From assembly GCA_947053645.1 (NCBI GenBank), contig CAMRTM010000003.1, positions 16,232 to 80,231 on the forward strand: a stretch of 64,000 bases of DNA, read 5' to 3'. Numbering within the stretch: position 1 is the first letter of the stretch; every line of letters starts with the position of its first letter. The notes beneath the pieces were generated by a model. The model made no database searches, had not been told where the DNA came from, and saw only the letters and a list, made by a program, of their open reading frames with translations. The stretch is from an uncultured Bacillota bacterium. Its GTDB lineage: Bacteria; Bacillota; Clostridia; Christensenellales; UBA1242. Position numbers and translations under genes: made by a program. Positions 37,842 through 57,873 of this stretch are shown piece after piece.

Positions 37842-37923
37842 GCGGATATGGCGGAATGGCAGACGCGCTGGATTTAGGTTCCAGTCCGAAAGGGTGCAGG
37901 TTCAAGTCCTGTTATCCGCACCA
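37842..37923 (+). tRNA. tRNA-Leu (anticodon TAG), CCA encoded
   Basis: GCGGATA acceptor / TATCCGC-A-CCA, anticodon arm CTGGA-TTTAGGT-TCCAG, long variable arm, T arm GCAGG-TTCAAGT-CCTGT. Confidence 0.9.
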
Positions 37924-37928
37924 TATAT

Positions 37929-37957
37929 CCTTTCTAAAAAGTCTTATTTTAGAAAGG
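37929..37957 (+). terminator. 11-bp perfect hairpin right after tRNA-Leu
   Basis: cctttctaaaa-agtctta-ttttagaaagg. There is no clear T run after it, so terminator function is uncertain. Confidence 0.4.
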
Positions 37958-38112
37958 AATAATAGAAATCGTTATAATGCCGATAAATAGGGCAATGTAG
38001 CGATTTTTAATTTATGTAGAATTGTTAAAAAGTTAGAATTAATAGCGAAAAAGTCTTATTTAGATATCAATGAATTTTTGATTTTCATTGATATTTTTTG
38101 TTTTTCAAGAAA

Positions 38113-38189
38113 AATCAAAACTTTCGCAAAATCAAAATAAAAAAATCAAAAGTAGCTGATTTTACCATTAAAAAAATCAAAAATCAAAA
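38113..38189 (+). repeat. Cluster of five direct AATCAAAA octamers (left island end)
   Basis: AATCAAAA at 38113, 38130, 38144, 38175 and 38182, plus an inverted copy near 38077-38084. Confidence 0.7.
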
Positions 38190-38191
38190 AC

Positions 38192-38253
38192 ATTAGCACC
38201 AATTAGCACAGATTAGCAAAAGTTAGAATGCACGAGAATTTCTGGGAATTATA
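38192..38253 (+). promoter_or_regulatory. 62-bp leader with four phased 10-bp repeats (copy A, upstream of the fiber operon)
   Basis: ATTAGCAcc aATTAGCAca gATTAGCAaa aGTTAGAAtg + cacgagaatttctgggaattata. 58/62 identical to the reverse complement of 55172-55233. Confidence 0.75.
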
Positions 38254-38314
38254 CTTGAAAGTGAGGAGGTAAAATTATTAAGAAAAACAAAAGTCGAGTA
38301 TAAAGGAGAAAGTT

Positions 38315-38956
38315 ATGGATAGCGAGTTTGTGCTAAGTTTAAAGGAGATTTCTTTAGAAATTGTTGTAATTGCTTTATTGGTGTTTGGACTCACAATGCT
38401 AATCAAATGGCCAATTAAAAAACTGACAGCAAAGTATGATGAGAACAAAAGAAAAGCTATAAACACAGTGATAGTATTTATCCCAATGTTCCTTTCATTG
38501 TTATTTAATGCATTATATTTCGGAATCTTTAAATCCCAATGGTTTTCAACACAGGCTTTTGATAGTATGGTAAGTTCATATGTTCTTGCAGTTGCAATTT
38601 ATGCTGTGTATACAAGAATTGTAATACTTATCAAGGGTGCAAAAGGACAAAGTGTAGAATCAGACCTAAGCAAAGAGACAATTTCATACATAAAGAAAAA
38701 TGTCAAAACATTATCTAAGACACTAAAATTAGATGAACAAGAACTTAACAAAATAGTTTCAAAAGTTGAGAGTCTAGTTAAACTTAGAGATGAAATTACA
38801 AGCAATGTTATATTGCAAGATATTCCAGAGACAGAAAACCTGGAAAGACAAATCAAAGAGTTGAACACTCAAAAAAATGATATCTTGGACAAGATATCCA
38901 AAAATCAATCTGAATTAGAAAAATTACAAAAATCAATTAAAAAGGAGAAAAATTAA
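38315..38956 (+). CDS. Three-TM membrane protein with long charged coiled-coil tail (holin-like architecture)
   Basis: TM segments at about aa 14-31, 49-72 and 85-106, then ~100 aa of K/E-rich coiled coil. First gene after leader copy A. AAGGAG RBS. Confidence 0.45.
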   Translation: MDSEFVLSLKEISLEIVVIALLVFGLTMLIKWPIKKLTAKYDENKRKAINTVIVFIPMFLSLLFNALYFGIFKSQWFSTQAFDSMVSSYVLAVAIYAVYTRIVILIKGAKGQSVESDLSKETISYIKKNVKTLSKTLKLDEQELNKIVSKVESLVKLRDEITSNVILQDIPETENLERQIKELNTQKNDILDKISKNQSELEKLQKSIKKEKN

Positions 38957-38958
38957 CT

Positions 38959-39402
38959 ATGTATCAGAGACAAGAATTTAAGGATAGAGAAGCAAAAAAT
39001 CCAAACAAAAGGAGAATTATAGTACTTGAACAAAATGCTAATGAAATCATTGCAAACATTGAACCAGTGGCAGAAGAGATTACTGAAGAAGGCACACCAT
39101 TTAATGCTGACCTTATGGAGAAATTTCAAGAATCAATTATTCAAAGTGAAACCGACTCGTCAGAAGCTCTTAGAATCGCAAGAGAGGCTAAATCACAATC
39201 ACAAGAATCATACGACCACGTGGTTTCAGTTCAAGGAACAAAAGTTACAAAAAATGGAGCTTTCGTTGCGAATTTTAATGCAGATGAAAAAGTCGACCAA
39301 ACTGATTTTGAAGCAATTGTGCGAAGAGTAGCCGCTTTGGAAAATAGTCCTATTATGACAAAAATAAAGTATGATTCAGAATCAGATACTTTTACTATTT
39401 AA
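38959..39402 (+). CDS. XkdV-like tail-fiber N-terminal domain protein (stub)
   Basis: MYQRQEFKDREAKNPNKRRI..EEITEEGTPFNADLMEKFQESI follows the Y-x-R..F-x-D..P-N-R..GTP..A..M pattern of Firmicute prophage tail-fiber N-termini. Only 147 aa. Confidence 0.5.
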   Translation: MYQRQEFKDREAKNPNKRRIIVLEQNANEIIANIEPVAEEITEEGTPFNADLMEKFQESIIQSETDSSEALRIAREAKSQSQESYDHVVSVQGTKVTKNGAFVANFNADEKVDQTDFEAIVRRVAALENSPIMTKIKYDSESDTFTI

Positions 39403-39434
39403 GTTGTTGCTTACATTGACAAAAAGGAGGAATT

Positions 39435-39965
39435 ATGCCAGATATTAGTTGTGAAGGAAAAATTGAAGCAAGAAGTTTGTTTGTCGATGGCTCAGAAATA
39501 TTTCCAGCAGGCATTGTTTTAGCATTTGGCGGAACTAGTATTCCAGCAGGGTATTTGCTTTGTGATGGAAGGGCAGTGTCAAGAACTCAATATGCTAGAT
39601 TGTTTAATGCAATTGGAACAAGTTATGGAGAAGGAGATGGACTCACATCCTTTAATCTACCAAACCTAATGGATAGGTTTATTCAGGGAAAAAATGAGAT
39701 TGTAAAGGATATTGAAGCAAAGTTACCAAACATTAAAGGTGGTAAGAAGTCGGGAAGCATTTTATATGGTGCAAATACTGAAATGCAGGGAGCGTTTCAG
39801 GGAAAATCTAATACAACAGTATATTCAAGTGTTGGCTCAGGCAGTGGTAAGATTTATTATAGTCCATTAGATTTTGATGCATCAAAGTCTAACCCAATTT
39901 ACAGCGACAATTGTAATACAGTTCAACCCCCAGCAGTTGGTATGAAATATATTATCAAATATTAG
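39435..39965 (+). CDS. Phage tail collar domain protein (fiber-tip-like 1)
   Basis: IVLAFGGTSIPAGYLLCDGRAVSRTQYARLFNAIGTSYGEGDGLTSFNLPNLMDRFIQG is a clear tail-collar motif. N-terminal adaptor motif MPDISCEGKIEA. LPNIKG motif. Confidence 0.75.
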   Translation: MPDISCEGKIEARSLFVDGSEIFPAGIVLAFGGTSIPAGYLLCDGRAVSRTQYARLFNAIGTSYGEGDGLTSFNLPNLMDRFIQGKNEIVKDIEAKLPNIKGGKKSGSILYGANTEMQGAFQGKSNTTVYSSVGSGSGKIYYSPLDFDASKSNPIYSDNCNTVQPPAVGMKYIIKY

Positions 39966-39978
39966 TTGGGAGATTCGT

Positions 39979-40453
39979 ATGAGAATTTTTAATGAAAATA
40001 AAACAAAAGAAATAAAAAAAAGAAGAAGTTGACTCTATAACAGAAAGATTAGTAGAAGATAAACTCTTTATACAACATCACGAAGTCATCCAGGAAATTC
40101 CAAAGCAATCTCATCTTAAGGTAGTTAAGGAATACGATAATGGCGGAAAAGATGTAATAGAAGTGGTTGATGTTGAATATGTGAAACCACAAGAAGCTTA
40201 TGATGAATATGAAGATATCTTAAGAGTAAAAACCTTAACAAAAGAAGAAATATTAAACAATCTTCGAATACTTAGGGAAGAACAGTGTTTTTCTATTGTC
40301 AACAGAGGATTAGTTTGGTATGCACAAATTGATAACAGCCAAAATTTAGAACTTACGCGATGGTATAAAGAATGGTTAGATATTACCGACTAATACACTG
40401 AAGGCGTGGATGTATTGACTATCATTCCAAATAAGCCAGAGTGGTTGAAGTAA
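39979..40453 (+). pseudogene. XkdW-like fiber accessory/chaperone-like gene with an A8 frameshift and an in-frame TAA
   Basis: ATG at 39979 (MRIFNENKTKEIKK) runs into an A8 tract (40014-40021), and the homologous frame continues in +1 (EEVDSITERLVEDKLFIQHHE..). TAA at 40391-40393 is followed in frame by YTEGVDVLTIIPNKPEWLK, which matches the C-terminus (VIPNKPTWLK) of the paralog at 42454-42804. Confidence 0.65.
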
Positions 40454-40462
40454 GGAGGTAAT

Positions 40463-40906
40463 ATGGGGAAATTTAATTGTGAAGGAGAAATCCAACTCTT
40501 TGGTATAAACATATTAGATAAAATCTATCCAATAGGTTCAGTTTATTTATCAGTAAGTCAAACAAGTCCTGCAAGTCTGTTTGGGGGGGGTACGTGGTCT
40601 CAGTTACCAGAGGGACACGCTGTATGGACAGCTTCAAGTGGTGCTGGCGAAACGATTTCAGCAGGTTTGCCAAATATAATCGGTAAAACAACTGATGTAA
40701 TTTTTTATAAAGATGTAATTAGAGGCGAAGGAGCCTTCGTTACTGGAGACACTGCTGCCTATTGGGATAGTAACAAAGGTGGAGATTATGTGGGAAGAAG
40801 AGTGTCGCTTTGGTTTGATGCTTCTTGCTATAACTCGATATATGGGGCATCATCAACAGTTCAACCACAAGCAATAAAAATTTATGCGTGGAAAAGAATT
40901 TCATAA
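40463..40906 (+). CDS. Fiber-tip-like protein 2
   Basis: N-terminal MGKFNCEGEIQ adaptor motif. IYPIGSVYLSVSQTSPASLFGGGTWSQL and LPNIIG motifs common in phage fiber tips. Contains a G8 tract at 40583-40590. Confidence 0.6.
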   Translation: MGKFNCEGEIQLFGINILDKIYPIGSVYLSVSQTSPASLFGGGTWSQLPEGHAVWTASSGAGETISAGLPNIIGKTTDVIFYKDVIRGEGAFVTGDTAAYWDSNKGGDYVGRRVSLWFDASCYNSIYGASSTVQPQAIKIYAWKRIS

Positions 40907-40919
40907 ATAGGAGGAAATT

Positions 40920-41456
40920 ATGGGCAATGCAAATATTGAAGGAAAATTAAAAGTCGATGGAAAATTAGAGGCTTTTGGTGTAATACCAATTGGTGGAGTT
41001 ATTCCATATTTTGGAACAAACACACCAAAAGGTTGGTTATTCTGTGATGGGAGTGTGTTTGATACTACTTTTTATCCAGAACTTTATTCCGTGTTAGGAA
41101 GTAATACCTTGCCAAAGATATCCGATAATAGATATTTGGAGGGGGCATCAATACCTAATGTACCACAAGATGCATCTATTCCTAACATTAAAGGGGAAGT
41201 TACTATTAAGGGAATTGATTCAAGTAGATTGTATATTGATCATACTGAAAACCAAATTGTTCAAGGAGCTAATAACGCACTTAGTGGTGGTAATAGTGCA
41301 TGTTGTATGCGTGTGGCAAGTTACAAAGAAAATACTGCATATAAGCAACATAAAACATTAGTCTTTGATGCAAACAAATACAACAATGTTTATAACGATA
41401 CTAATATTTTAAGACCTAAGTCAGTAACGGTTAGATATTTGATAAGGGCAAAGTAG
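40920..41456 (+). CDS. Phage tail collar domain protein (fiber-tip-like 3)
   Basis: MGNANIEGKLK adaptor motif. IPIGGVIPYFGTNTPKGWLFCDGSVFDTTFYPELYSVLG collar motif. IPNIKG. Confidence 0.7.
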   Translation: MGNANIEGKLKVDGKLEAFGVIPIGGVIPYFGTNTPKGWLFCDGSVFDTTFYPELYSVLGSNTLPKISDNRYLEGASIPNVPQDASIPNIKGEVTIKGIDSSRLYIDHTENQIVQGANNALSGGNSACCMRVASYKENTAYKQHKTLVFDANKYNNVYNDTNILRPKSVTVRYLIRAK

Positions 41457-41465
41457 GAGGAATTT

Positions 41466-41786
41466 ATGGTAAGTGAGAATGAACTTGTATCTCTTATTGA
41501 TAAGGATAATGTAATTTACAATGTTTTAAAAGCAGAAAGATTAAATTATCCAGATAGAGAAGCAACACTTGAAGAAATTGAGTGTAGAAAACAAGAGGAA
41601 CAAAAGGAAAAACAAATTGGAATACTTAAACAAAGGCTAAGAGACTATAGTGATGATATAGTTCAAGATATGGCAGGAGAAATCGTTCCAGATATTGAAA
41701 AAAGAAAACTTGAATTTATGAGAACCCACGATTTGTTAAGAGCCTTATTAAATATGCCTATTAGGGATAAGAAAGGAGAAATATAA
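41466..41786 (+). CDS. Small acidic accessory protein (chaperone-like)
   Basis: 106 aa, charged and coiled. Sits directly after a fiber-tip gene, in the same position as the XkdW-like genes. Confidence 0.35.
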   Translation: MVSENELVSLIDKDNVIYNVLKAERLNYPDREATLEEIECRKQEEQKEKQIGILKQRLRDYSDDIVQDMAGEIVPDIEKRKLEFMRTHDLLRALLNMPIRDKKGEI

Positions 41787-42457
41787 TGGCAAAAGCAAAT
41801 ATAGAAGGAAATGTTAAAGCTGAAAGTTTGGAAGTCTCAGGTAAAATTCAAGCGAAGACTTTGGATTTGGAGGGTGCGTTTACCGCACTTAAGAGTATTG
41901 GTGGGGGATTTTCAATATCCGACCCAGTAAATGTGGGATTAGAGTTGGGTAGAAGAGATGGAACACCAGGCACTCCATATATTGACTTCCATACAGATGG
42001 ACAAGCAAATACAGATTATAATGCAAGAATTATTGCACATAGCAATTATTTAGATATAGCATCTGCTGGAGGTTTAAAGATTAATGGAAATTCCGTAGAT
42101 GCTCTAATGATGGCTATGATGGGAAATAATTGGTCTGCATTTTCGACCTATGGAAAAGTTACTAAACTTGTAGACGGGAATATTGCATCTGGTAATATAG
42201 GAATTGGTGCGCCACTTTTGAACTATGATATTATTTTCGTTTGCGGAACAGAGGATAATAACAATGGAACTACTTGGACTTGTATACCTGTTTGGCAACT
42301 TAGTGAGGCTTTAACACAAAATCCAAATGGCAATACAGCTTTGTGGTTTAATTCTCAGGCTTTTTGGTATGTAAAAAACTCATCATTTAATACAACAACA
42401 CTAACAGTCTTTTCAGAATGTGCAAAAATATATAAAATAATAGGAGTGAAACTATGA
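41786..42457 (+). CDS. Fiber-tip-like protein 4 (paralog of 42814-43452)
   Basis: MAKANIEGNVKAESLEVSG..GTPGTPYIDFHTDG..TDYN.R. The first ~85 aa are nearly the same as the paralog; the C-terminal ~135 aa are unrelated. Confidence 0.6.
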   Translation: MAKANIEGNVKAESLEVSGKIQAKTLDLEGAFTALKSIGGGFSISDPVNVGLELGRRDGTPGTPYIDFHTDGQANTDYNARIIAHSNYLDIASAGGLKINGNSVDALMMAMMGNNWSAFSTYGKVTKLVDGNIASGNIGIGAPLLNYDIIFVCGTEDNNNGTTWTCIPVWQLSEALTQNPNGNTALWFNSQAFWYVKNSSFNTTTLTVFSECAKIYKIIGVKL

Positions 42458-42804
42458 TTAAGTACGAATTAGATGAAAACAATTTCTTAACTGGGAATTT
42501 TGCTTATGTTGGACAATTTGAAAGATTTGTGGAATTAGATAAAGAACTTAACGAAGTAAATAAAAATTTGCAATGGAATGGCACAAACTTCATTTTGTCG
42601 ACAAATCCAAAAGAAGTAGAAAGAGAACTTCGTGTGTTAAGAGAAGAAAGAGAGAAAGAATGTTTTTCTTTCATAAACAGAGGACAAATGTGGTATGAAA
42701 CGCTAAGTTATGAACAAAAACAAGAACTAAGAAATTGGTATATTCAATGGCTTGATGTAACAGAAACAAAAGTAATTCCAAATAAACCAACATGGTTAAA
42801 ATAG
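42454..42804 (+). CDS. XkdW-like fiber accessory/chaperone-like protein (intact)
   Basis: ..LRVLREEREKECFSFINRGQMWYETLSYEQKQELRNWYIQWLDVTETKVIPNKPTWLK. Paralog of the disrupted gene at 39979-40453. Confidence 0.5.
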   Translation: MIKYELDENNFLTGNFAYVGQFERFVELDKELNEVNKNLQWNGTNFILSTNPKEVERELRVLREEREKECFSFINRGQMWYETLSYEQKQELRNWYIQWLDVTETKVIPNKPTWLK

Positions 42805-42813
42805 GGGGAGTAC

Positions 42814-43452
42814 ATGGCAAAAGCGAATATAGAAGGAAATGTTAAAGCTGAAAGTTTAGAAGTTTCAGGTAACATTAAAGGCAATACGTTAGATTTAGAA
42901 GGCTCTTTTACAGCTCTTAAAAATAAAGGTGGTGGTTTTTCTATCTCAGATCCAGTAAATGTTGGTATAGAACTTGGGAGAAAAGATGGAACACCAGGTA
43001 CTCCATATATTGATTTTCATACAGACGGAAAGCCAGAAACAGATTATAACTCAAGATTAATTGCTGTTGGAGATATGTTAAGCTTAAATTCTTCTGAACT
43101 TCGTCTTAATGGGCCAACAGCAAGATTTAGTATAAATGGTGTTCGTCTTGGAGATTATGGGATTGAAATATTATCTAAAGCAGAAAGGGATTTACCAGTA
43201 GGCACTAATATAAGTTTAACACAACCGATTACGAATTTTAGTGCATTGGCAATAGCAATTGAACGCGATAATGTTATTAATGATATAAAATACTATCCAG
43301 TTTCACTTATAAAAGCATATATGAATAATTATGCTTTTACATGTCAAGGTTATGGTAATACATCATGTAAGTTCAGATTTACTGATATACAGCATATAAA
43401 CTTTCAAGCACATTATTATACTGGCTGGTTTCGTATATTTGGAATTGTGTAA
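42814..43452 (+). CDS. Fiber-tip-like protein 5 (paralog of 41786-42457)
   Basis: Same N-terminal module MAKANIEGNVKAESLEVSG..GTPGTPYIDFHTDG.., with a different C-terminal domain. Confidence 0.6.
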   Translation: MAKANIEGNVKAESLEVSGNIKGNTLDLEGSFTALKNKGGGFSISDPVNVGIELGRKDGTPGTPYIDFHTDGKPETDYNSRLIAVGDMLSLNSSELRLNGPTARFSINGVRLGDYGIEILSKAERDLPVGTNISLTQPITNFSALAIAIERDNVINDIKYYPVSLIKAYMNNYAFTCQGYGNTSCKFRFTDIQHINFQAHYYTGWFRIFGIV

Positions 43453-43473
43453 GTAAAAAAAAGATTAATTAGT

Positions 43474-43506
43474 AAAAAAAGATACTCATTTCTGAGTATC
43501 TTTTTT
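43474..43506. terminator. Bidirectional terminator at the convergence point of the two island operons
   Basis: aaaaaaa-gatactca-tttc-tgagtatc-tttttt. Confidence 0.75.
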
Positions 43507-44097: not shown

Positions 44098-44108
44098 TTA
44101 TACTCCTT

Positions 44109-45056: not shown

Positions 45057-45167
45057 TTATACTAATCTTATGAACAGAAATAAAAATTAAAAGGATTAAT
45101 CATTTTTAGTTAGATGTATCAGAAATAAAAGTGATTTGCACAAAACTAATTTGTTTAATATAGATAT

Positions 45168-45201
45168 AAAAAAGATAGACTTATTTTAGCCTATCTTTTT
45201 T
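45168..45201. terminator. Hairpin terminator closing orphan cassette 2
   Basis: aaaaaagatag-acttattttagc-ctatctttttt. Confidence 0.6.
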
Positions 45202-45223
45202 ATACTCAATTTTATATTATTTG

Positions 45224-46045: not shown

Positions 46046-46054
46046 ATTATCCTC

Positions 46055-46957
46055 CTATTTAATTACTGACCACCATTTAAATAGTTTGTAAAACAAATGA
46101 TTATTTCCACCTGGCAATATATAGTTCCCCTTTGAACCTATTGGGAAAGCCCAGCTTTCTAGATTAAAGTGAGGTCCATATTTTCCATGACCTTTATAAT
46201 CCCATCTTAACTGTCGCATACCATCTTTAGAAATCCATCTCTTATTTCCAACTTTGTTATATCCTTTTCCTAAAAACTTTTGCCCCTGCTTTGCTGCCTT
46301 AAATTGACCTGTGGAGTGGTAAACTCCTAAAATCATACTTCCAACAGCAGCAACACCTTCGGTAATTCCACTAAACCAATTGTAAGCAGTTTCGTTGCCT
46401 TGGAATATGCCATCGCGTATAAAGTTATAGTTTGTACCTGCTTCGATTAATGTCGCGATTCCATCAACTGCAGTTAAAACGCCTGCCACCAATGTTACCC
46501 CAGCGACAATCCCCATTAATAACGGAATTCCTGCTCCAAATGTTGTGACAGCTAATACGATAGCAGTTACTGCTGTGAAGATTTTTCCAATTGCCTTCCA
46601 GAACTTTTTCCAGCTCCAATTTCCAGTAGTGTCTGAATCATTTACAGGGTTATTAAAACAGTAAGCATAAAGATTTAATCCATTAAGTTCATCCATTGTT
46701 TCTGTTAAAATAGAAACATCATCTGCATTAATGAATCTACCAATTTCAGGATCGTAATATCTACTATTTAAGTAATATAAATTGGTTTCAAAGTCATAAT
46801 AGTAACTACGATATCTGAATGGATTTTTGAAAGCAATGAAAGCATTGATTTCACTAATATCATTATACTTAAAAGCATCATGGAATACAACATATTCTTC
46901 GATAATTTCTCCATTTTCTTTGATGTTTTTGCCCAAATATTCAGTTTTTACATTTCC
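46055..46957 (-). CDS. Orphan rhs C-terminal cassette 2 (core-end fragment + TM segment + C-terminal toxin-like domain)
   Basis: Frame opens at 46957, right after a TAG. GNVKTEYLGKNIKENGEIIEEYVVFHDAFKYNDISEINAFIAFKNPFRYRSYYYDFETNLYYLNSRYYDPEIGRFINADD..NNPVNDSDTTG, then hydrophobic helices and ..RWDYKGHGKYGPHFNLE... The track start is a TTG at 46936. Confidence 0.75.
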   Translation of the reverse strand, partial: GNVKTEYLGKNIKENGEIIEEYVVFHDAFKYNDISEINAFIAFKNPFRYRSYYYDFETNLYYLNSRYYDPEIGRFINADDVSILTETMDELNGLNLYAYCFNNPVNDSDTTGNWSWKKFWKAIGKIFTAVTAIVLAVTTFGAGIPLLMGIVAGVTLVAGVLTAVDGIATLIEAGTNYNFIRDGIFQGNETAYNWFSGITEGVAAVGSMILGVYHSTGQFKAAKQGQKFLGKGYNKVGNKRWISKDGMRQLRWDYKGHGKYGPHFNLESWAFPIGSKGNYILPGGNNHLFYKLFKWWSVIK

Positions 46958-49049: not shown

Positions 49050-49063
49050 ATGTTACCTCCTAT

Positions 49064-52000
49064 CTATTTAATATTAAATTTATTTAATGCCCAATTTATA
49101 ATATTGTTAAGAAAAGTAAAACTGCCATATGTTATCATTGCCCCAGTAAACATTTTAAACATTTGTTGTCCCACAGCCGCTGTCATTTTATTGGTAACTT
49201 GCGTTAGTGCTGATTTCATCCCTTGTGCTGTGGCGTAATAAGTTCCTGAGGCTATTCTATTCTGAACAGCTTTTAAGCTCATTGCGGCCTTTTGGACATT
49301 ATGTGCAGAACCAACAGCTTTTGCGTTTTGTGTTCCTGCACCAGCAATCAGACCTGAGACTCCGCCAACAACCACACTAATTCCGAAACTTATCCAATTT
49401 ATTTCGCTTAGTGACGCTCCACCTATTAATTGTGAGGCAAAGTTAGAAATACCACCAATACCTGCACCAATTAGCATTGAACCTATTTTGGAAATCCCAG
49501 ATACACCAAGTAATCCAGTTATTGCTCCGACTCCAATATCTAAAGCAAATTGTCCCCAGTTTAATTCTCCGTTAAAGATGGCTTGTGAGCCTAATGATAC
49601 TCCTGCACCAATCGCTGCCCCTACAAATGCCGCTCCAACTAGGCCACCAGTAAATATAGAGCCAACGACTAGCCCTACGACAATAAATCCTGCCAGTAAC
49701 CATTCCCACCATTTTGTTGTTCCAAATGGGTCAGTAAAATATATTGGATTATTCCCACAGTATGCATAAAGATTTAAACCGTTGAGTGACTCGGCATCAA
49801 GATTACTAATGTCGTCAGCATTAATGAATCTGCAAATTTCAGGGTCGTAATATCTACTATTTAAGTAGTAAAGATTGGTTTCAAAGTCATAATAATAACC
49901 ACGATACCTGAAAGGATTTTTGAAAGCAATGAAAGCATTGATTTCACTAATATCATTATACTTAAAAGCATCATGGAATACAACATATTCTTCGATAATT
50001 TCTCCATTTTCTTTGATGTTTTTGGCCAAATATTCAGTTTTTACATTTCCCCAGGCGTCATAGGTGTAGCGAACAATTTGTTTTCCATTAGAATCGTAAA
50101 TCCCAATAATATCATTTTGCAAATTCTTCTTATAGAAGAAATCAGCATCTACAATATTGTTTTTCAAATGGAAACCAGTTATGTCATCAGCTCCGTAGTA
50201 GAATGTAAGGTCATTACAGCAGTCGTGTTGTTTAATAATTTTTTCACCATTAAGGAAGAATTGAGTAGTAAAAGGTTTTTCACAAAGACAATCTTCTGTG
50301 CATTCACAATTAGCACCATTAAACTTGAATCGAGGATGGTCAGTATAAATGGTTTTACTTGTTCTAATTCCGTTTGCATTGTATTTGTAGTCAACTAATT
50401 GACCAATAATTTTATTGTTTTCATCTTTAAGTACATCAAATGCATCAAGTTGTCTGCCATTAGACCAATCGAGTTTCAAGTCTTTATATCTTGTTGGATT
50501 TCCAAGTTCATCATACTCAAACTTTCTACCATTTAACATGATAAGTTGATCTCGCCAGCCAGAAGTAGGGTATGAGTAAACAAAAGGAGTGGATTCAATT
50601 GTATCTAAATTGCCTGTTAATGTAAAAGGATATTCCAATCGTTGAGTGATATTATCGCCAGCATCATATGAGTAAACAGAAGTTTTTCCTATTTTCTTAT
50701 TATCTTCACGAATGATGCGGGATAGTCCATCATATTGATAACGTGCGATCAATTCATTATTTATTCTGACCTCAGTGATATTACCTTTACTATCATATGA
50801 ATAATGCATATTTTCGTTGGCTTCGCTTTTACTTGAAAACTTGATATTAGAAATAAGATTTGATGAGTGGTCGCCAGATTTCAAATAATTATATTCTTTA
50901 TTTATATTACCACTTTCAATTTGTTTCACTCTGCCAAGCTTATCATATTTGATAATTTGTTCAATTTCATTAGGAAGCAGAACTCCTTTAAGTTTGGGTT
51001 TAACTTCGTTTGAATAATTGTAGTTATAGAAAAGCTCCTCATCTTCAATAGTTATAGTGCTGTTTTCTACATTTGAATGTTCATCATCATAACAATTTTC
51101 AACTAGAACCTTTTTACCGTGCTGTTTTGTTTCTTCTTTGTAAGTATTACCAAATTTATCAATAAAAATTTTACTGATTTTTTCTTCAGCAGTTCCATCT
51201 TGGTTATAGATAAGTTCTTTTACAAACACTAAGTTTCCATAAGTATCGTAAATGTTTTGAGAAACTAGCCTTTCAGCAGGGCTTGGATCCTCATCAGTTG
51301 GTTTAGGAGTAAAATATGTTTCAACAACATTCCCATCATCATTGAGTGTTTGTCTAAATGTTTCTTGATTTGCAAATTTTGTGATTTCATTTTTGATAGT
51401 TTTATTACTAGATGTTGTATCATCTTCAATTGGTTCATCAATATACTCTTTGACAAGATATTCATTGTTTGCGATTGAGATTCTGGAAATATCTCCATCA
51501 GAATTATAGTCATAATCAACTGAGAAATCATTGTGTTTAAGGCTAGTTAATGTATCAAGATAATAGCCATACGTATTTGTATTTTCAATTCCATTAATTG
51601 TTGATGAAATCTCAAGTAGATTGTTGTCTGGGGTATAGCCGTAACTAATTTTAGTGCCATCTTCATATGTCTTTGACGTTATTATACCAGTACCTTCAAT
51701 GTACTCAAGCTTTGCTCCATCAAAGCCTAACTCGTTAAGCTCTTTTGTAGATTTACCTTTTTCATCTAGGCAACTTTCTTGATAGAATTTAGAAGAAGGC
51801 TCATCCTTGTTATAGGTTATAGATTTTACAACTAATCCTTGTTCATTATAAGTATTTTCATTGACAATACCATCGCAATTTGTTGTTCTAATTAAGCTGC
51901 CTTGTTTATTGTATTCATAAACTATCTCAAGTGGTTCTGCTCCCGACTTGTTAATTTCCGATTTCTTGTAAATCAATTCCTTCGAGATTCTTGTAGAGTC

Positions 52001-55000
52001 ATCTTCGTATTCAAATTTGGTTACCCATTGGGAATGTGCATTTGATTTTTCTACAAGACGGGTTTGTTCATCATAGATAGATTCCTCAAAATCGGCTTCT
52101 TTAAATTCCAAATCAGTAAATTCAATTTTTCCAGTATTGTTTGAATAATCAATTATGCATTTAACTTCTGAGACAATTTTATCTGAATTGATGTAAATAG
52201 GGACAGAACAGAATTGCCAATCAGTGTTGCGCCAATCAAATGATTTCTTTTCAATCTGAGGTTCATTATCATTGAGATAGGTGACTTCAATCCTCAATTC
52301 AAATTTTCTTTTTTCAAGATAGGTTGTAGGTGTTTTATCTTCTATATTTTCTTTTTCAGCAATATAAGCAGAATTTGCTTTTGCCCAACCAGACAACATA
52401 TAGGCTTTATGGTTGCAGTCCTTATATGAAAGATTTATCTTGTTTTTCATTTTTTTGCTCATATACACTTGCTCAAATTTGTTGATAGAATTGTCATCTA
52501 GAGAGTGGAATTTTTCACAAATTTTATATGAATATGGTATTGTATCAGCTCCACAATAAGTATTACCAAGATATAGTGCATGCTTAATGGTCCGAGGCTC
52601 TTTAAAACATTCATCACTCAATAAATTCTCAGAATAAGGGAGTTGACTAATTTTGGCAGAAGTTTTGTTGTTGTGATAGTTAAACTCTGTTGCTCTGGAG
52701 CAGTTATCCTCCGAATTTTGTTTAAAGTTATTTTCATACATTGTACGAACTTTTCCAAGATTATCAAAGATATAAGTAATACTTTTATTGTTAGATGTAA
52801 TTGTGGTTGACCTAAGATTGTTTTTTCGAATGTAGGTGGTTTTACCCGTATTTTTCTTTTCTGCAAGAATAACATTCTCATCTGCAAAATCATCAAAAGT
52901 AAGAGAGTTTTGATATTCAATGTCTCCGTTTTTGATTTCAGTAATAATGGAGAAATTCTCTATATTCAAGTCTACAACATTTCCAGATTCACTAGGAATA
53001 AGAGATTTGTTTATAATTACACCAAATCCAGATTGGTCTACCACTAATTGCTTGTCTTTATTGGTAAGAAAATAGTTGCTTTTAGAATCATTAGTATGTG
53101 TAATTTGGAACAATTTGTCGTTAGGGGTAGCGAACTTTACAATTCTATCTTTGCTATCAATAATTGACTCCAAAACAGAGTAATCATTATTATAATTAAA
53201 AAGAATTGTTTTATCTGCAGAATCGGTAATTGATTCGATTGTATTTGAATCAAAGTCTTTATATTTGATAAATATTGTGTTCTCATAAGGGTCTGCAATT
53301 AAAATTAGACGGAACAGATTATTGTTGTCTATTTTTGCTTTGCCAAAACCATAAATAACATTTTCATCGTTATATAAATAATGAATAGGGGATTGAATTT
53401 CAAGAAGGTTTAGTTGATTTTGATACTTTTCAAGTTGTTCGTTGCATTCAGTTAAGAGTTTGTTATTTTTATTAATAGATTTTGCCAAACTTTCAAGTTG
53501 TAGATCAATAGAGATGATATCTTTAAGAGAAAGGATAAATGCATTTTTAATCTCATTTTCGTTATTAGAGAATGTCTCTGGATATTTGAAGCTCTTATAA
53601 ATAGAACCAAGATCTGATATTTCTATTCCAAGGCGAGATAATTCTTTACCAATTGTTTCCTTAAAAGTTTGTTCTTCTATATCTGTATAGTAAAGATTTT
53701 TATTTAAAAGATAAGCTTCTTCTTGAGAATCTAAAGTGCTCTTAAATGGATCTGGATTTTCGCTATCCCAAAAACCAAGGGAATATATAAATGAAGATTC
53801 ATTAGAAATAATGCTTCCAAGGATGACTTGATCTTCAGAGATTGTGTATGATCCAGCGGCTCTTCCACCGACGCCACCACCACCGCCACCACCGCCAGAG
53901 CTTCCACCGAAGCCACCGCCACCAGGAGCTGAGCTACCATGTTTCAAACAATTATCATAGACTTTTAATATTTGAGAATAGGTGAGGGGATTCTTTCCTA
54001 CAAGATCCTTTGCTGTACTATTATCGCTTCCAGTTTGAAGTCGATATAGTCTATTATTTTCAGAACAAATCTTTCTAATGATTTCAATTTTTCTTTGAAA
54101 AGCGAGCATATTACTTTCATTTTGAACTGATTCTTTTTGACTATTAAATTGTTGTTGAAGAGCATTTTTAGTTAGTACATAAAGACAGAATTGCTTTTTA
54201 CTACTTTTTAAGCTGTTTTCAATATCTTCTTTATTTCTATCTAATTGTTTGATTTGTTGTCTTACGTTAATCACTTCTTCAGGTTCATAGTCTACTAACT
54301 TAGATCCGTCAATATCTTTTATAGAAGCTACGAGTTTAAGACCAGATGGGGCTTCAAGTATGGTGTGTACTTTTTTGTTTTCATACATCAAATCTCCATT
54401 AGGGCTTACGCTTAATTGTCCATATTCCAGAAAATGTTTCTCTTTATTTTCAATGTAATAATATTTTTCTTCAATTAACTGATTTTTTCCATTTCCATCA
54501 ATATATGTAAATCTGAGCCTGTTTGTAGAGTCGTCTTTTATGAGGAATTGTTGAACATTAAGTCCCCAATTGTCAGGTAAACCAGTGGTTGGCATTAACT
54601 CATTTTTTACTGAATTATAATGTGCAGCGATAGAGAGTGGCAACACATTATTATCTGAAGAAACAAGTGGAACAGACAAAGCAACCTGTTGCGTGGCTAA
54701 GTCTATTGATGCTGAACCTGCTTTGCCTAAATCAATGTTGTGTGAACTTCCATTGGCTTGAAACTCAGAAAGTGAAATATAATCAATGTTGAGCTCGCTA
54801 TCTTCAAGTTGAAGATGTTCTCCAGTTAATGTTTTAAAGAGAAGTGTTATTTGACTATAATTATTGTCCAAACAATATTGAACTTCATCACTTAGGTTTA
54901 GTGTGAGAATATCAACATCATTTGAGGCTTCAATGGAGTCAACATTCCACCTATCTGATTCATTTGGCTTGAAGTCTATATCAAACCTTGTAGGGAGAGA

Positions 55001-55132
55001 TTCAGTTTGAACTATTTTAAGGTTCAAATAAGCATCTACAACTTTGATGTTCTTAGTAAGATCTTCTAGTGGAATACTAAGAGTGTTTTCGCTGAAAACA
55101 AATTTCTGCGAATTAATTGTAACATTTTTCAT
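49064..55132 (-). CDS. RHS/YD-repeat polymorphic toxin (2022 aa) with Gly-zipper/hydrophobic C-terminal toxin domain
   Basis: Dozens of YD-type repeats (..YxYDxxGN..), e.g. YEYNKQGSLIRT, YSYDSKGNITEV, YQYDGLSRIIRE, YSYDAGDNITQR. Core end FKNPFRYRGYYYDFETNLYYLNSRYYDPEICRFINADD..LYAYCGNNPIYFTDPFGT. The ~240-aa C-terminal domain is rich in G/A/I/V. No signal peptide. Confidence 0.9.
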   Translation of the reverse strand: MKNVTINSQKFVFSENTLSIPLEDLTKNIKVVDAYLNLKIVQTESLPTRFDIDFKPNESDRWNVDSIEASNDVDILTLNLSDEVQYCLDNNYSQITLLFKTLTGEHLQLEDSELNIDYISLSEFQANGSSHNIDLGKAGSASIDLATQQVALSVPLVSSDNNVLPLSIAAHYNSVKNELMPTTGLPDNWGLNVQQFLIKDDSTNRLRFTYIDGNGKNQLIEEKYYYIENKEKHFLEYGQLSVSPNGDLMYENKKVHTILEAPSGLKLVASIKDIDGSKLVDYEPEEVINVRQQIKQLDRNKEDIENSLKSSKKQFCLYVLTKNALQQQFNSQKESVQNESNMLAFQRKIEIIRKICSENNRLYRLQTGSDNSTAKDLVGKNPLTYSQILKVYDNCLKHGSSAPGGGGFGGSSGGGGGGGGVGGRAAGSYTISEDQVILGSIISNESSFIYSLGFWDSENPDPFKSTLDSQEEAYLLNKNLYYTDIEEQTFKETIGKELSRLGIEISDLGSIYKSFKYPETFSNNENEIKNAFILSLKDIISIDLQLESLAKSINKNNKLLTECNEQLEKYQNQLNLLEIQSPIHYLYNDENVIYGFGKAKIDNNNLFRLILIADPYENTIFIKYKDFDSNTIESITDSADKTILFNYNNDYSVLESIIDSKDRIVKFATPNDKLFQITHTNDSKSNYFLTNKDKQLVVDQSGFGVIINKSLIPSESGNVVDLNIENFSIITEIKNGDIEYQNSLTFDDFADENVILAEKKNTGKTTYIRKNNLRSTTITSNNKSITYIFDNLGKVRTMYENNFKQNSEDNCSRATEFNYHNNKTSAKISQLPYSENLLSDECFKEPRTIKHALYLGNTYCGADTIPYSYKICEKFHSLDDNSINKFEQVYMSKKMKNKINLSYKDCNHKAYMLSGWAKANSAYIAEKENIEDKTPTTYLEKRKFELRIEVTYLNDNEPQIEKKSFDWRNTDWQFCSVPIYINSDKIVSEVKCIIDYSNNTGKIEFTDLEFKEADFEESIYDEQTRLVEKSNAHSQWVTKFEYEDDSTRISKELIYKKSEINKSGAEPLEIVYEYNKQGSLIRTTNCDGIVNENTYNEQGLVVKSITYNKDEPSSKFYQESCLDEKGKSTKELNELGFDGAKLEYIEGTGIITSKTYEDGTKISYGYTPDNNLLEISSTINGIENTNTYGYYLDTLTSLKHNDFSVDYDYNSDGDISRISIANNEYLVKEYIDEPIEDDTTSSNKTIKNEITKFANQETFRQTLNDDGNVVETYFTPKPTDEDPSPAERLVSQNIYDTYGNLVFVKELIYNQDGTAEEKISKIFIDKFGNTYKEETKQHGKKVLVENCYDDEHSNVENSTITIEDEELFYNYNYSNEVKPKLKGVLLPNEIEQIIKYDKLGRVKQIESGNINKEYNYLKSGDHSSNLISNIKFSSKSEANENMHYSYDSKGNITEVRINNELIARYQYDGLSRIIREDNKKIGKTSVYSYDAGDNITQRLEYPFTLTGNLDTIESTPFVYSYPTSGWRDQLIMLNGRKFEYDELGNPTRYKDLKLDWSNGRQLDAFDVLKDENNKIIGQLVDYKYNANGIRTSKTIYTDHPRFKFNGANCECTEDCLCEKPFTTQFFLNGEKIIKQHDCCNDLTFYYGADDITGFHLKNNIVDADFFYKKNLQNDIIGIYDSNGKQIVRYTYDAWGNVKTEYLAKNIKENGEIIEEYVVFHDAFKYNDISEINAFIAFKNPFRYRGYYYDFETNLYYLNSRYYDPEICRFINADDISNLDAESLNGLNLYAYCGNNPIYFTDPFGTTKWWEWLLAGFIVVGLVVGSIFTGGLVGAAFVGAAIGAGVSLGSQAIFNGELNWGQFALDIGVGAITGLLGVSGISKIGSMLIGAGIGGISNFASQLIGGASLSEINWISFGISVVVGGVSGLIAGAGTQNAKAVGSAHNVQKAAMSLKAVQNRIASGTYYATAQGMKSALTQVTNKMTAAVGQQMFKMFTGAMITYGSFTFLNNIINWALNKFNIK

Positions 55133-55171
55133 TTTCTTATTCTCCTTTTAATTTTTTAGTTACAATTCAAT

Positions 55172-55233
55172 TATAATTCCCAGAAATTCTCATGCATTCT
55201 AACTTTTGCTAATCCTTGCTAATTCGTGCTAAT
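55172..55233 (-). promoter_or_regulatory. 62-bp leader with four phased 10-bp repeats (copy B, upstream of the rhs gene)
   Basis: Reverse complement reads attagcacgaattagcaaggattagcaaaagttagaatgcatgagaatttctgggaattata. Ends 39 nt before the rhs ATG and overlaps the last codons of the sigma-like gene. Confidence 0.75.
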
Positions 55234-55605
55234 ATTGGGTTGCATTTTAGATGTTATCAATATTAGTTGGTTTAATGCATCGCTATGTAACTGATAAATT
55301 CGCTTTGTTGAGAAGTGAATTTTATCAGCGATTTGGTCAAATGTAAAAAAGCTTATATATCTCATATATAGAATAGTTCTATAAGGTTGTTGAAGTTTTT
55401 GTATTAAACTTTCAATATATTTCTTCCTTTCTAGAATTTTCTTAATTTCTAATTTTTCAGTTTCTTTTGTATCAATTAAAAATGCAGAATCGTGTTGATT
55501 CATAGTGAGTTTATTGAATAATTCAACCTCTTTAAACTTTTCGGTTAAGTATTGATTATCAAACCAGTAACTCTCAAAGAGTTCTTTCAACTTTTCCCTT
55601 GTCAT
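55219..55605 (-). CDS. Small sigma-70 region-4-like protein / phage late-activator-like regulator
   Basis: C-terminal ..YRTILYMRYISFFTFDQIADKIHFSTKRIYQLHSDALNQL is a region-4-type HTH, as in small phage sigma/RinA/ArpU-like activators. ATG at 55605 has GGAGGTGG upstream. Confidence 0.55.
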   Translation of the reverse strand: MTREKLKELFESYWFDNQYLTEKFKEVELFNKLTMNQHDSAFLIDTKETEKLEIKKILERKKYIESLIQKLQQPYRTILYMRYISFFTFDQIADKIHFSTKRIYQLHSDALNQLILITSKMQPNISTN

Positions 55606-55719
55606 TTCCACCTCCAAAAGTTTTACTATATGTAAACATAATATCAAATGTGTAAACAAAAAATCAAGCAAAAAGTTGTTTTTTTTGTATAAATGTCGAT
55701 TTATGTCTAAAAATTTTTG

Positions 55720-55729
55720 TTAACAACTA
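55720..55729. promoter_or_regulatory. Perfect palindrome TTGTTAACAA in the divergent promoter region (candidate XRE operator)
   Basis: Lies between the sigma-like gene and the XRE gene, about 18 nt upstream of an extended -10 (TGGTATAAT at 55747-55755). Confidence 0.35.
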
Positions 55730-55780
55730 GTAAAATTTTTATTATTGTGGTATAATACAAATAATAGGAGATGAAAATTT

Positions 55781-56125
55781 ATGTTTAAACATAAACTAAG
55801 AGACCTTAGGAGAGAAAGAAAACTTACTCAAGATGCTCTAGCAAAGCTTTTGAATGTTGGCAAAACAACAATATGCTTTCTAGAAACGGGAGTTCGTGAA
55901 CCAAGTGTTGAAATGTTATTTAAAGTAGCGAAAGTGTTTGGAGTTACTACTGATTGGCTTATGGAAGATGACTCCATAACAATAAAAGAAAGACCACAAG
56001 TAAATACGGTTACTATAATTGGTAGGGGTGGAACATACACAACAATTCAATTGAAAGATGATGAAATTAACGAATTGAAGAAAATTGCGCAAGAAATGTA
56101 TGACAATGATAAAAAAGACAAATAA
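55781..56125 (+). CDS. XRE-family repressor-like HTH protein
   Basis: LRDLRRERKLTQDALAKLLNVGKTTICFLETGVREPSVEMLFKVAKVFGVTTDWL is a canonical HTH_3 domain. Confidence 0.8.
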   Translation: MFKHKLRDLRRERKLTQDALAKLLNVGKTTICFLETGVREPSVEMLFKVAKVFGVTTDWLMEDDSITIKERPQVNTVTIIGRGGTYTTIQLKDDEINELKKIAQEMYDNDKKDK

Positions 56126-56558
56126 CGAAATAAAACTTATTGGGCGAACAAAGAATAATAATAATTTATTGAGAGTTGACCATAAGCGTTCAAATAATGA
56201 AAGTATAATTGAAGAAATTGCCGACAGCTTTATTCTAAAAAACAATGTTTATAGGTTGCCTGTTGATGTTGTTGAGATAGTGAAGAATAATGGATGGTTT
56301 TTACTTCCTTTCACGAAAGCTCCTAGTTTTATTTATAATAAATACTCAGATTTGTTGTATACAGATTGGGGATTTACACTTCAGTTAGATAATCAATATT
56401 ACATTTTTTATGACGACAAGATTAAACTGGAGATTCAGAGATTTACAATAGCACACGAAATTGGACATATTGTACTAAAACATTTTAAGGATGAGAATTT
56501 TTGTATTATAATATATGTGTATAAGGAAGAAAAAATAGATGAAATACATTTTGCTTGA
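56085..56558 (+). CDS. ImmA/IrrE-family metallopeptidase-like protein (probably C-terminally truncated)
   Basis: HEXXH motif in FTIAHEIGHIVLKH. The ORF stops about 30 aa later, right after ..EIHFA, where family members normally continue. Start uncertain (56085 or 56100). Confidence 0.55.
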   Translation: MRKKCMTMIKKTNNEIKLIGRTKNNNNLLRVDHKRSNNESIIEEIADSFILKNNVYRLPVDVVEIVKNNGWFLLPFTKAPSFIYNKYSDLLYTDWGFTLQLDNQYYIFYDDKIKLEIQRFTIAHEIGHIVLKHFKDENFCIIIYVYKEEKIDEIHFA

Positions 56559-56565
56559 CACATGA

Positions 56566-57606
56566 ATTTATGAGAACGAAGGTTTTAACTTTAACCAAGG
56601 ATATTTAAAGATAATAGAGACTCTGTGTAAAAATGGAGACTTGAAATTATTTAGCCACGCAATAATAGAGGGAGAGGTAAAGGCTCATATAATTGAAAAG
56701 GTTAATGAATTTAGGATAGGTGTAAAATCATTAAAAAAACTCTCATATATTTTCTATAATCAAGCAAGTTATAAAATACTAAAAAAGTTTAATGAAGAAT
56801 GGTACGATGAAAATTCTTTACTTGCGTACAAAAACTTTTTAGAATCTTCTAAGCCAATTATGTTGGGGAATAATGAAATAAGCCTTGATAAACTGGTAAA
56901 TGACTATTTAAAACGAGAACCACCATTTGGAATTGGGAAAAAGAAAAATGAATTTCCTGATGCGATTATCCTAAATGCATTATTAAAGTTTGAAAAAAAA
57001 GATCGGGATGAAATTTATATAATTTCTTCAGATAATGACTGGATTCATTTTTCAGAGAAATACAAAATTCCTTGTTATAACACCATATATGGTTTTATGA
57101 GTGAAGTAATGTCTGAAGCAGAACAAAATATGATATACACAGATGCTATAAAAACTTGGATAGCTAATGATAAAAATAAAAACCTCATCGAAGCAAGGCT
57201 TATGACGGAACTTGACACAATGATGGAGAAGCGTCATGATGATTATGATGAAATTGAACACGATTCTTTAATAAAAAATTTAGATGACTTTGAGTGCATT
57301 TGTTTCAATTTAGAAACCAAAGAGCTTAGTTTTCAAATGACTTTTGATTGCGACATAAAATATCTTTTATCATATGAAGATTACGACAATGCAATTTATG
57401 AACGTGAGTATGGTAAGTGGTATAACTTGGAGTATGTGACTGACAAGTATGAAGATTCGACTATTGGTGTGGCGGTTATTGGCTTAAAATTTGACATTAA
57501 AGGAGAACGTGTTATCATTAAAGACTTTGATGCAGTTGAAGTTCTTCAGTTGGAAGATGATGAATTTAAACATACGAGGATAAAGCCTAATTATTATTAT
57601 GATTGA
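56566..57606 (+). pseudogene. PIN-like (DUF4935-type) protein gene with damaged 5' end
   Basis: ..KNEFPDAIILNALLKF..IYIISSDNDW.. fits my recollection of DUF4935. The frame is open from 56566, but the only nearby ATG (56562) is out of frame by one nt at a T run. The track start is a TTG at 56641. Confidence 0.4.
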
Positions 57607-57610
57607 TAGA

Positions 57611-57700
57611 TTTCGCGAAATCAAATTTGATTTATTTTGATTTTTGTGAGAAATTATAAATAATCAAAAGTGTCGCATAATCAAAAAGAAGAAATCGAAA
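57611..57700 (+). repeat. Cluster of (A)ATCAAA(A)-type repeats (right island end)
   Basis: gAAATCAAAt, inverted tttGATTt / ttttGATTttt, tAATCAAAAg, tAATCAAAAAg, aAATCgAAAAA within 90 nt. Confidence 0.6.
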
Positions 57701-57810
57701 AAAGACTGCTTGTAATGTTGACACATAACATTAACTTATGCCTAACTTCGGTTCGGCTCAATTTTTACTTGTCGCACCAAATGGCAATGGCATGGCAGAA
57801 AATAAAAATA

Positions 57811-57840
57811 AAAGGAAGTGATGTTACTTCCTTTTATTTT
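57811..57840 (+). terminator. Intrinsic terminator at the right edge of the island
   Basis: aaaggaagt-gatgtt-acttccttt followed by tatttttg. Confidence 0.6.
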
Positions 57841-57873
57841 TGTTTTATGTTAAAATGAATGTAGGAGAAAATT

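Follow-up and report, generated by a model that had tools for sequence, protein, structure and literature searches.

Downstream of a tRNA-Leu gene in an uncultured Bacillota bacterium (Clostridia; Christensenellales; UBA1242), phage-type regulators, fibre genes and an rhs array lie between housekeeping genes, and both ends of this accessory DNA carry clusters of ATCAAA-type repeats around two nearly identical 15-mers. An earlier note on this DNA had taken the two 15-mers as the bounds of an island of about 19.5 kb, old and immobilised or mobilised in trans, whose repeat clusters might serve a recombinase as arm sites. Do the 15-mers mark an insertion, and, if they do not, what are the repeats and the genes between them? 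The window that was analysed is the whole stretch of 64,000 nucleotides (nt), positions 16,232 to 80,231 of the forward strand of contig CAMRTM010000003.1 (assembly GCA_947053645.1); coordinates refer to the window unless one of the compared loci (L numbers) is named. The locus is probably a tRNA-associated island that carries a phage-regulated module of an Rhs toxin and fibre-tip proteins, with the 15-mer as the head motif of phage arrays.

An island at the 3' end of tRNA-Leu

Relatives without the island were found by a genome scan with the flanking hydrolase. The closest, L001 and L002, stand at about genus level (SpoIIE 93-95% identical in amino acids, aa) and keep the order amidase - gmk - spoIIE - hydrolase - tRNA-Leu ... 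fer4 - DUF5131 - degV. Between the hydrolase and fer4 they hold 1.5 kb and 3 kb of unlike DNA, against 20.3 kb in the window. The gap contains two NUDIX genes in L001, and in L002 a truncated serine recombinase, a DUF488 gene, another open reading frame (ORF) and tRNA 3'-end remnants. Because the gap DNA differs among the window, L001 and L002, the space between tRNA-Leu and fer4 is a hot spot and its content in the window is accessory. What occupies 37924 to about 57700, at the 3' end of tRNA-Leu(tag), is a true island, about 19.8 kb long and without integrase. To this extent the earlier note was right: accessory DNA missing from the closest relatives lies directly 3' of tRNA-Leu, and no ORF of at least 75 aa between the repeats has an integrase, recombinase or transposase domain. 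A recombinase or integrase was likewise found in none of eight sampled members of the island family (including the window, L379, L381, L383, L385, L468 and L469). A satellite of the phage-inducible chromosomal island type was considered and rejected, as integrase, AlpA, replication and capsid- or packaging-redirection genes are all missing from the window.

The following features mark the ends.

37842-37923, plus strand: tRNA-Leu(tag), called by ARAGORN and Rfam; the chromosomal anchor, present in island-less L001 and L002
37924-38105, plus strand: left-end leader with three hairpins, at 37929-37957, about 37974-38012 and 38062-38105, the last followed by a T-run
57773-57779, plus strand: CGCACCA, which may be what is left of a tRNA-Leu 3' end copy, its position matching that of the L002 remnant GTCGCACCAA
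57801-57844, plus strand: terminator hairpin common to L001 and L002, where the backbone resumes; fer4 starts at 57874

Homology between the window and L001 runs through the tRNA to 37950, is back at 57679-57723 and appears again at the terminator hairpin, at 57811. The segment 57679-57723, 91% identical to island-less L001, consists of the last two units of the right repeat cluster and CTTGTAATGTTGACA. A second comparison is provided by L379/L466, where an island of the same family lies directly 3' of tRNA-Gly(ccc) in an unrelated chromosomal context; its DUF1492 protein is 83% and its first fibre-operon protein 92% identical to that of the window. Here the DNA homology starts at 37917, inside the tRNA 3' end, and continues at 86.5% identity through the hairpins, the left repeat cluster and a promoter into the fibre operon. 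The leader hairpins are thus conserved in L379/L466 behind a different tRNA, and the likeness of the leader to L001 is limited to its first 27 nt. Because the L379 homology starts at 37917, all DNA from 37924 rightwards moves with the island, which puts the left 15-mer at an inner position, about 200 nt from the island end. Towards the other end, homology with L379 stops at 56113, the end of the xre gene; the ImmA-like gene, the PIN_12 gene and the right array are variable end pieces. Comparison with island-less relatives, which the earlier note had itself proposed as a check, places the insertion boundaries elsewhere than at the 15-mers. A sigma-70-like match at 37950-37978 was rejected as a promoter and read instead as a hairpin stem conserved in L379.

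The heptamer CGCACCA is by itself not significant (7 occurrences in the window; p ~0.3). The L002 remnant, which has a clearer likeness to the tRNA-Leu 3' end, lies 5' of the same hairpin and fer4. Family members adjoin the 3' ends of four tRNAs (Leu-tag, Gly-ccc, Arg-cct and Trp-cca); L468 and L469 are not at a tRNA within the DNA seen. The island resembles known tRNA-associated islands in its position at a tRNA 3' end, its absence from relatives, its accessory cargo and the use of several tRNAs within the family. It differs from them in that no member has an integrase and none a significant flanking copy of the tRNA 3' end. The island may be mobilised in trans.

Small cassettes were also noted at these sites. 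In L002 the truncated serine-recombinase ORF (8885-9667) runs into tRNA-Leu from the opposite strand and is followed by the DUF488 gene and a second ORF (7375-8692), and in L379 a DUF488 gene with neighbouring DuOB genes (1989-3250) adjoins ATCAAAA arrays. The DUF488 cassettes of L002 and L379 suggest cassette shuffling at tRNA hot spots. A decayed remnant of a tRNA end with a hairpin, at about 3640-3700 of L379, is homologous to L009 8070-8170.

ATCAAAA arrays and their head motif

Two arrays carry the repeats of the island.

38076-38189, plus strand: left ATCAAAA array, one inverted and five direct units, containing the head motif TTTCGCAAAATCAAA; also in L379
57608-57700, plus strand: right ATCAAAA array, with the palindrome GATTTCGCGAAATC that contains 57611-57625 and a second head motif, TGTCGCATAATCAAA, at 57671-57685

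The repeats are present as the earlier note had described them. The 15-mer pair consists of TTTCGCAAAATCAAA at 38122-38136 and TTTCGCGAAATCAAA at 57611-57625, both on the plus strand, and the right copy starts 4 nt past the stop codon of the PIN_12 ORF (ORF end 57606). On the left, five exact octamers AATCAAAA on the plus strand (38113, 38130, 38144, 38175 and 38182) span 77 nt (38113-38189), and a sixth, inverted, lies at 38076. The right cluster holds three exact octamers (57635 on the minus strand, 57662 and 57679 on the plus strand) together with ATCAAAT and TTTGATTT variants. The octamer is not enriched over the window as a whole (25 observed, 17.4 expected). At a density of at least four ATCAAAA units per 120 nt, clusters were found in 1.66 Mb of related-genome loci only in the window, in L009 and in one coding-region coincidence; they are a rare and specific element and not a common intergenic feature, the case in which the earlier note would have given up its own proposal. 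The 14/15 match alone is not significant: when the two AT-rich boundary regions were resampled 300 times under a first-order Markov model, 34 of the 300 draws gave at least one pair of 15-mers with at most one mismatch (~0.11).

Counterparts of the arrays came from phages. A scan of viral sequences with ATTAGCAAAAGTTAGAA gave chance matches inside coding sequence only, and one with three octamers was swamped by AT-rich giant-virus contigs; a scan with TCGCAAAATCAAAA returned mostly noise, yet yielded L159 and L181, in which an array that includes TTTCGCAAAATCAAAAATCAAA lies directly 5' of the small-terminase gene (terS). The TerS protein of this type matches Terminase_4 above the Pfam cutoff. 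Phage loci were gathered by TerS protein similarity alone, blind to the DNA motif, in an alignment-based scan (a single-protein scan gave four loci). Where TerS is at least 53% identical, 55 of the 58 loci have at least three forward ATCAAAA units in the 300 nt 5' of terS, with a mean of 4.6 forward and 0.74 reverse units per locus against a background of 0.044. None of the 16 loci in which TerS identity is 35-42% has such an array. Directly ahead of the first unit, 27 distinct contexts from phages show CGC(A/G)(A/T)A with hardly any variation, as part of the motif CGC(A/G)(A/T)AATCAAAAATCAAA; its variants are TTTTCGCAAAATC, AAACGCGAAATC and AATCGCATAATC, and the head motif of L009 and L379 reads TGTCGC(A/G)AAATCAAAA. 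The consensus yTCGCrwAATCAAA is matched by the window sites at 38122, 57611 and 57671, and in units and head motif the window arrays agree with those of 55 of the 58 phage loci. To judge from these sequences, the clusters of the earlier note are a phage cis element and its 15-mer is the head motif of ATCAAAA arrays.

The position of the phage arrays points to packaging. A GC-rich box of the GGGGCGGTCAAATCTC type is common to both TerS clades, with an HNH endonuclease gene 5' of the box in nearly all loci, and in the phages of the ATCAAAA clade the arrays sit between this box, which resembles a cohesive-end (cos) site, and terS. An upstream HNH gene, a cos box and terS form the usual layout of HNH-using cos phages, and in lambda it is cosB, with its R sites, that lies between the cos box and terS. 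In HK97, TerS recognises a 15-bp site at 15-29 bp from the cos cut, in which a central C:G and an A-tract are required (PMC11331095). The phage arrays are similar to such cosB/TerS sites in that they lie between the cos-like box and terS, belong to one TerS clade and have a head motif that pairs G:C positions with an A-tract. By this analogy, recognition by the small terminase is the most likely function of the array in the ATCAAAA-clade phages, with about an even chance of being right. The head motif yTCGCrwAATCAAA beside a GC-rich box is accordingly a candidate TerS site for a large clade of gut cos phages. The closest TerS of a deposited phage is at most 42% identical, hence the array is not anchored to a named phage with mapped ends.

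The window differs from these sites. It has no GC-rich box of the GGGGCGGTCAAATCTC type even when up to 3 mismatches are allowed, and no HNH, terS or terL gene adjacent to the arrays or elsewhere in the ORFs checked; its two arrays stand 19.5 kb apart round non-phage cargo. Because box and terminase genes are missing from the window, the island arrays would be incomplete as packaging sites, and they are best read as phage-derived end pieces. Within the island family and its relatives, the window, L379 and L009 alone have arrays; L381, L383, L385, L468 and L469 have the module without them. The family can thus do without arrays, which lie outside its core module. L379 has three further composite arrays, each about 110 nt long (units oriented ---++-++ around TGTCGCGAAATCAAAA), at 3371-3492, 3885-3957 and 4825-4933, where they flank small cassettes past the right end of the island.

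Three points weigh against the packaging reading. Arrays stand at both ends in the two closest members, the window and L379, so that an end-related role is conceivable. The phage set is redundant, with about 35 loci from one metagenome and 27 distinct head-motif contexts. Finally, the units are 7-nt direct repeats directly 5' of terS and could be activator or promoter elements.

The last point can be extended to all arrays, which might be transcriptional elements (upstream activating or curved DNA, or a late-operon leader) that serve the next promoter or ribosome-binding site (RBS) and are not packaging sites. We regard this as possible but rather unlikely. The arrays are always directly 5' of a gene that runs in the direction of their direct units, ahead of terS in the phages, of the RBS of an abhydrolase gene in L379, of a TGGTATAAT promoter in L009 and of an ATTAGCA promoter in the window. 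Their 7-nt units with about 11-nt phasing are like Ltr sites, the binding sites of phage late activators, and phages of the L159 type encode a Q-like antiterminator and have a terminator that splits the array. However, some loci with a DUF1492-type activator have arrays (L319) and others have none (L450, L453, L457-L460, L464 and L465), and because of this the arrays follow the TerS clade, not the activator. L319 has a separate ATTAGCA-like box at its DUF1492 gene and the array at terS, the phage units reach the RBS and leave no space for a downstream promoter, and the putative rhs promoter of the island has no array. As to the terminator, a hairpin splits the array 5' of terS in L159 (4184-5905) and in L376-L378 (at about 3650-4003; same contigs as L392-L394), and the regulator near the L159 array matches Phage_antitermQ. 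Late expression in ATCAAAA-clade phages may involve antitermination through the array.

The model of the earlier note, in which the 15-mer TTTCGCRAAATCAAA is an att core or target duplication, the clusters are arm sites for a recombinase acting in trans and the island is what lies between the copies, is very improbable. It would suit the lack of a recombinase throughout the family, the presence of family islands at four different tRNA genes, the arrays at both ends in the window and L379, the three others that flank small cassettes in L379 and an L009 array about 150 nt from a tRNA 3' remnant. Against it, the left copy is about 200 nt within DNA that moves with the island to another tRNA, and L001 homology is back 54 nt past the right copy, so that island-less L001 has the outer part of the right array. 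The chance level is about 0.11, and five loci (L381, L383, L385, L468 and L469) have the module without arrays. Nor does the repeat look like a product of insertion: the motif is conserved in unrelated phages directly 5' of terS, which makes it a shared functional motif. A short direct repeat in the AT-rich ends of an island can be such a motif and not att, and this calls for caution where islands are delimited by repeats.

Two sequences similar to the head motif, with 2 mismatches each, lie at 22184-22198 (TTTCACAAAATCGAA) and 23229-23248 (TTTTGCAAAATCAAG, a palindrome), directly 5' of ORFs that start at 22220 and 23252. These may be chance matches.

The Rhs and fibre-tip module and its regulators

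Between the arrays the island carries the following features.

38189-38259, plus strand: left late-type promoter, ATTAGCA/GTTAGAA units at 38192, 38202, 38212 and 38222; precedes the fibre operon
38315-38956, plus strand: TMcc213, a holin-like candidate whose gene opens the fibre operon; three predicted transmembrane helices, then a charged coiled coil
38959-43452, plus strand: fibre-tip proteins (Collar, Gp10_C; 147-223 aa) by Pfam and PHROGs, alternating with chaperone-like ORFs of 76, 106 and 116 aa
43486-49049, minus strand: orphan Rhs C-terminal toxin and immunity cassettes, with core-end repeats and an Rhs_assc_core match in ORF 46055-46936
49064-55132, minus strand: Rhs toxin, 2022 aa, intact, with RHS_repeat, YD repeat and Rhs_assc_core matches
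55166-55236, minus strand: right late-type promoter, overlapping the 3' end of the activator gene; precedes rhs
55219-55605, minus strand: DUF1492/sigma-70 region 4 protein, 128 aa, by Pfam and PHROGs; of the phage late activator type (LtrB)
55781-56125, plus strand: Xre-type helix-turn-helix (HTH) repressor by Pfam, divergent from the activator gene
56085-56558, plus strand: truncated ImmA-like M78 peptidase by Pfam; the full-length partner in L381 has 211 aa
56641-57606, plus strand: PIN_12 ORF, Pfam profile positions 34-172 of 172; variable right-end cargo, missing in L379

The earlier note had missed that 38189-38259 and 55166-55236 form a 71-nt inverted repeat, 92% complementary, of two promoter-like copies. 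Each consists of three ATTAGCA and one GTTAGAA units with a 10-nt period, 21 nt that include GGGA, and TATACT or TATAAT; in the left copy the 21-nt spacer with GGGA leads to TATACT at 38250-38255. The same element with the same 21-nt spacing lies behind the activator gene in L015, L379, L381, L383 and L469, and ahead of the fibre operon, marked by TMcc213 homologues, in L379, L383, L470 and L469. A related box is found behind the regulator gene in the phages L159 and L319.

The protein whose gene overlaps the right copy matches PF07374 and PF04545 above their cutoffs and falls into PHROG families of transcriptional regulators and activators. It has 30 homologues, and those with recorded Pfam domains carry DUF1492 and/or Sigma70_r4. 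Together with RinA, ArpU, LtrA and LtrC, DUF1492 (LtrB) falls into a superfamily of phage late activators (Quiles-Puchalt et al. 2013, PMC3753634). As in those circuits, a small DUF1492/sigma-70 region 4 protein is encoded here with 7-nt direct repeats just distal to its gene, followed by a promoter, and with an Xre/ImmA-type switch upstream. By this analogy we infer that the activator binds the ATTAGCA repeats. The island differs from the Ltr circuits in that the putative targets are the Rhs operon and the fibre-tip operon and not terS or morphogenesis genes (the window has no terS), and in that its promoter is duplicated 17 kb off, in inverted orientation.

The Rhs gene is 80% identical in DNA to that of L379 and 79-80% to that of L381. 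No signal peptide, PAAR, LXG/WXG or TcdB/TcaC domain was found in the protein by Pfam, NCBIfam and direct reading of the N-terminus. A run of glycine codons, GGGGFGGSSGGGGGGGGVGG, in its N-terminal third (53860-53940) shows at the DNA level as short direct repeats. The core end of Rhs recurs as a 300-nt repeat in four copies (44644, 46623, 48154 and 49716), and the orphan region has a weak Imm32 match below the family cutoff. Orphan cassettes are normal in Rhs loci. The island shares with the Rhs/YD polymorphic toxin loci (Zhang et al. 2012, PMC3482391) the RHS repeats, the Rhs-associated core, variable C-termini, immunity genes and repeated core ends. It is unlike them in lacking PAAR, LXG/WXG, a signal peptide and a TcdB/TcaC partner, and in that its Rhs is tied to a three-helix membrane protein and fibre-tip proteins under phage-type control.

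In the fibre operon, matches of the fibre proteins are confined to the C-terminal tips of phage fibres of 400-1000 aa, and the operon has an internal duplication (41786 and 42814). Its first protein, TMcc213, has 213 aa and is longer than typical holins; AlphaFold places its helices at residues 14-38, 43-72 and 79-111, and no holin match was obtained with Pfam, PHROGs or NCBIfam. Its homologues form 146 clusters, of a uniform 208-216 aa, all unannotated. In 8 of 8 sampled contexts (the window, L379, L381, L383/L470, L385/L386, L468, L469 and L382/L384, a variant at the L383 locus) these homologues have as neighbours an Rhs gene (1800-2000 aa) and a pair of phage-type regulators. The architecture varies in L385 (9076-20633) and L468 (10001-20633), where a single operon, all genes in one direction, encodes the membrane protein, a fibre-like protein rich in glycine (416-418 aa) and Rhs; the L385 operon has a LexA-like HTH and S24 repressor and no ATTAGCA promoter. 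The island is one copy of a widespread gut-Firmicute module built from phage regulatory parts, and its combination of Rhs, an Ltr-type circuit and a tRNA-associated island was not found in the literature searched.

The earlier note was correct that some genes are damaged: the ImmA-like ORF is shortened to 157 aa (211 aa in L381) and its match takes in only 40 of 123 Pfam positions, and PIN_12 lacks the first 33 profile positions. Its description of an old, immobilised remnant is too weak, since the Rhs gene (2022 aa) is intact, both copies of the promoter have been conserved and many genomes share the architecture. That the fibres, regulators and Rhs are unrelated leftovers of a decaying prophage at a tRNA hot spot is very improbable: such a remnant could account for the two damaged genes, the Rhs fragments and the gap DNA that differs in each relative, with the truncated recombinase of L002, but not for an architecture and promoter copies conserved down to 50-57% protein identity, nor for the intact Rhs and the constant length of the TMcc213 homologues, and orphan cassettes are usual in Rhs loci.

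A possible course of action

If these parts work together as their relatives suggest, the Xre repressor and its ImmA-type partner would control the DUF1492 activator, which would be made once repression is relieved. It would then bind the three 7-nt ATTAGCA repeats, spaced by 10 nt, in both 71-nt promoters (GTTAGAA-N21-TATACT form). One promoter copy would drive the Rhs toxin, the immunity genes and the orphan cassettes, and the other the three-helix holin-like protein, the fibre-tip proteins and their chaperones. Rhs may be released via the membrane protein or by lysis, with the fibre tips giving target recognition; Rhs itself carries no known export signal.

Toxins driven by a sigma-like factor and linked to holin-type release are known from C. 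difficile (TcdR/TcdE of the pathogenicity locus, PaLoc) and C. perfringens (UviA/UviB/BCN5). Like these loci, the island has a small sigma-like activator of its own and encodes a small membrane protein, its large toxin lacks a signal peptide, and it is of phage ancestry. It is different in that its DUF1492 protein is not a group 5 sigma-70 factor, its toxin is an Rhs protein and its fibre tips have no counterpart there. For Rhs toxins of Gram-positive bacteria, the export routes known so far are mainly type VII secretion (LXG) and cell-wall anchoring. An intact, signal-less Rhs that is linked to a membrane protein, fibre tips and phage regulators (8 of 8 contexts, 146 clusters) points to a release and targeting route that is undescribed, with common uncultured gut Firmicutes as its hosts. 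In its furthest form, this would be a new phage-derived system in which a late activator fires Rhs, a holin-like protein releases it and interchangeable fibre tips target it (a fibre-guided bacteriocin), and in which, in the lineage of the window and L379, a cos phage of the ATCAAAA clade would recognise the integrase-less island by its flanking terminase-type motifs and move or transduce it; we put this forward only tentatively.

Several points stand against the overall reading. Since the island-less relatives belong to other species (hydrolase 75-79% identity), the positions of the junctions are approximate. By Smith-Waterman alignment, a copy of the tRNA 3' end at the far end is not significant in any member (p ~0.31 for the window, 0.16 for L383 and 0.07 for L379). 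Foldseek gave nothing significant for TMcc213, with holins only at E >=0.17. Activator binding, transcription, secretion and killing are predictions from the genes. As regards the junctions, when metagenomes were scanned with the hydrolase, no relative above 64% came up, hence no same-species empty site, and exact-sequence look-ups of two flanking proteins gave no match.

Two further observations concern DNA next to the island and next to a family member. Directly 5' of tRNA-Leu(tag), the 5' half of a tRNA-Leu(TAA)-like sequence (37670-37800) follows a TTGCAA-17-TATACT promoter; the acceptor 5' strand, the anticodon arm and a D-arm into which a hairpin of about 43 nt is inserted are present, and there is no T-arm. 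It has no Rfam match, in keeping with the Rfam search as a whole, which returned tRNAs only, and it is conserved in L001 and L002. By the ImmA end of the L381 island (216-8812) lie genes for a 964-aa protein without domain match, a UvrD-type helicase, a PAPS-reductase-domain protein and a Peptidase_S24 protein, which could be a defence-type cluster.

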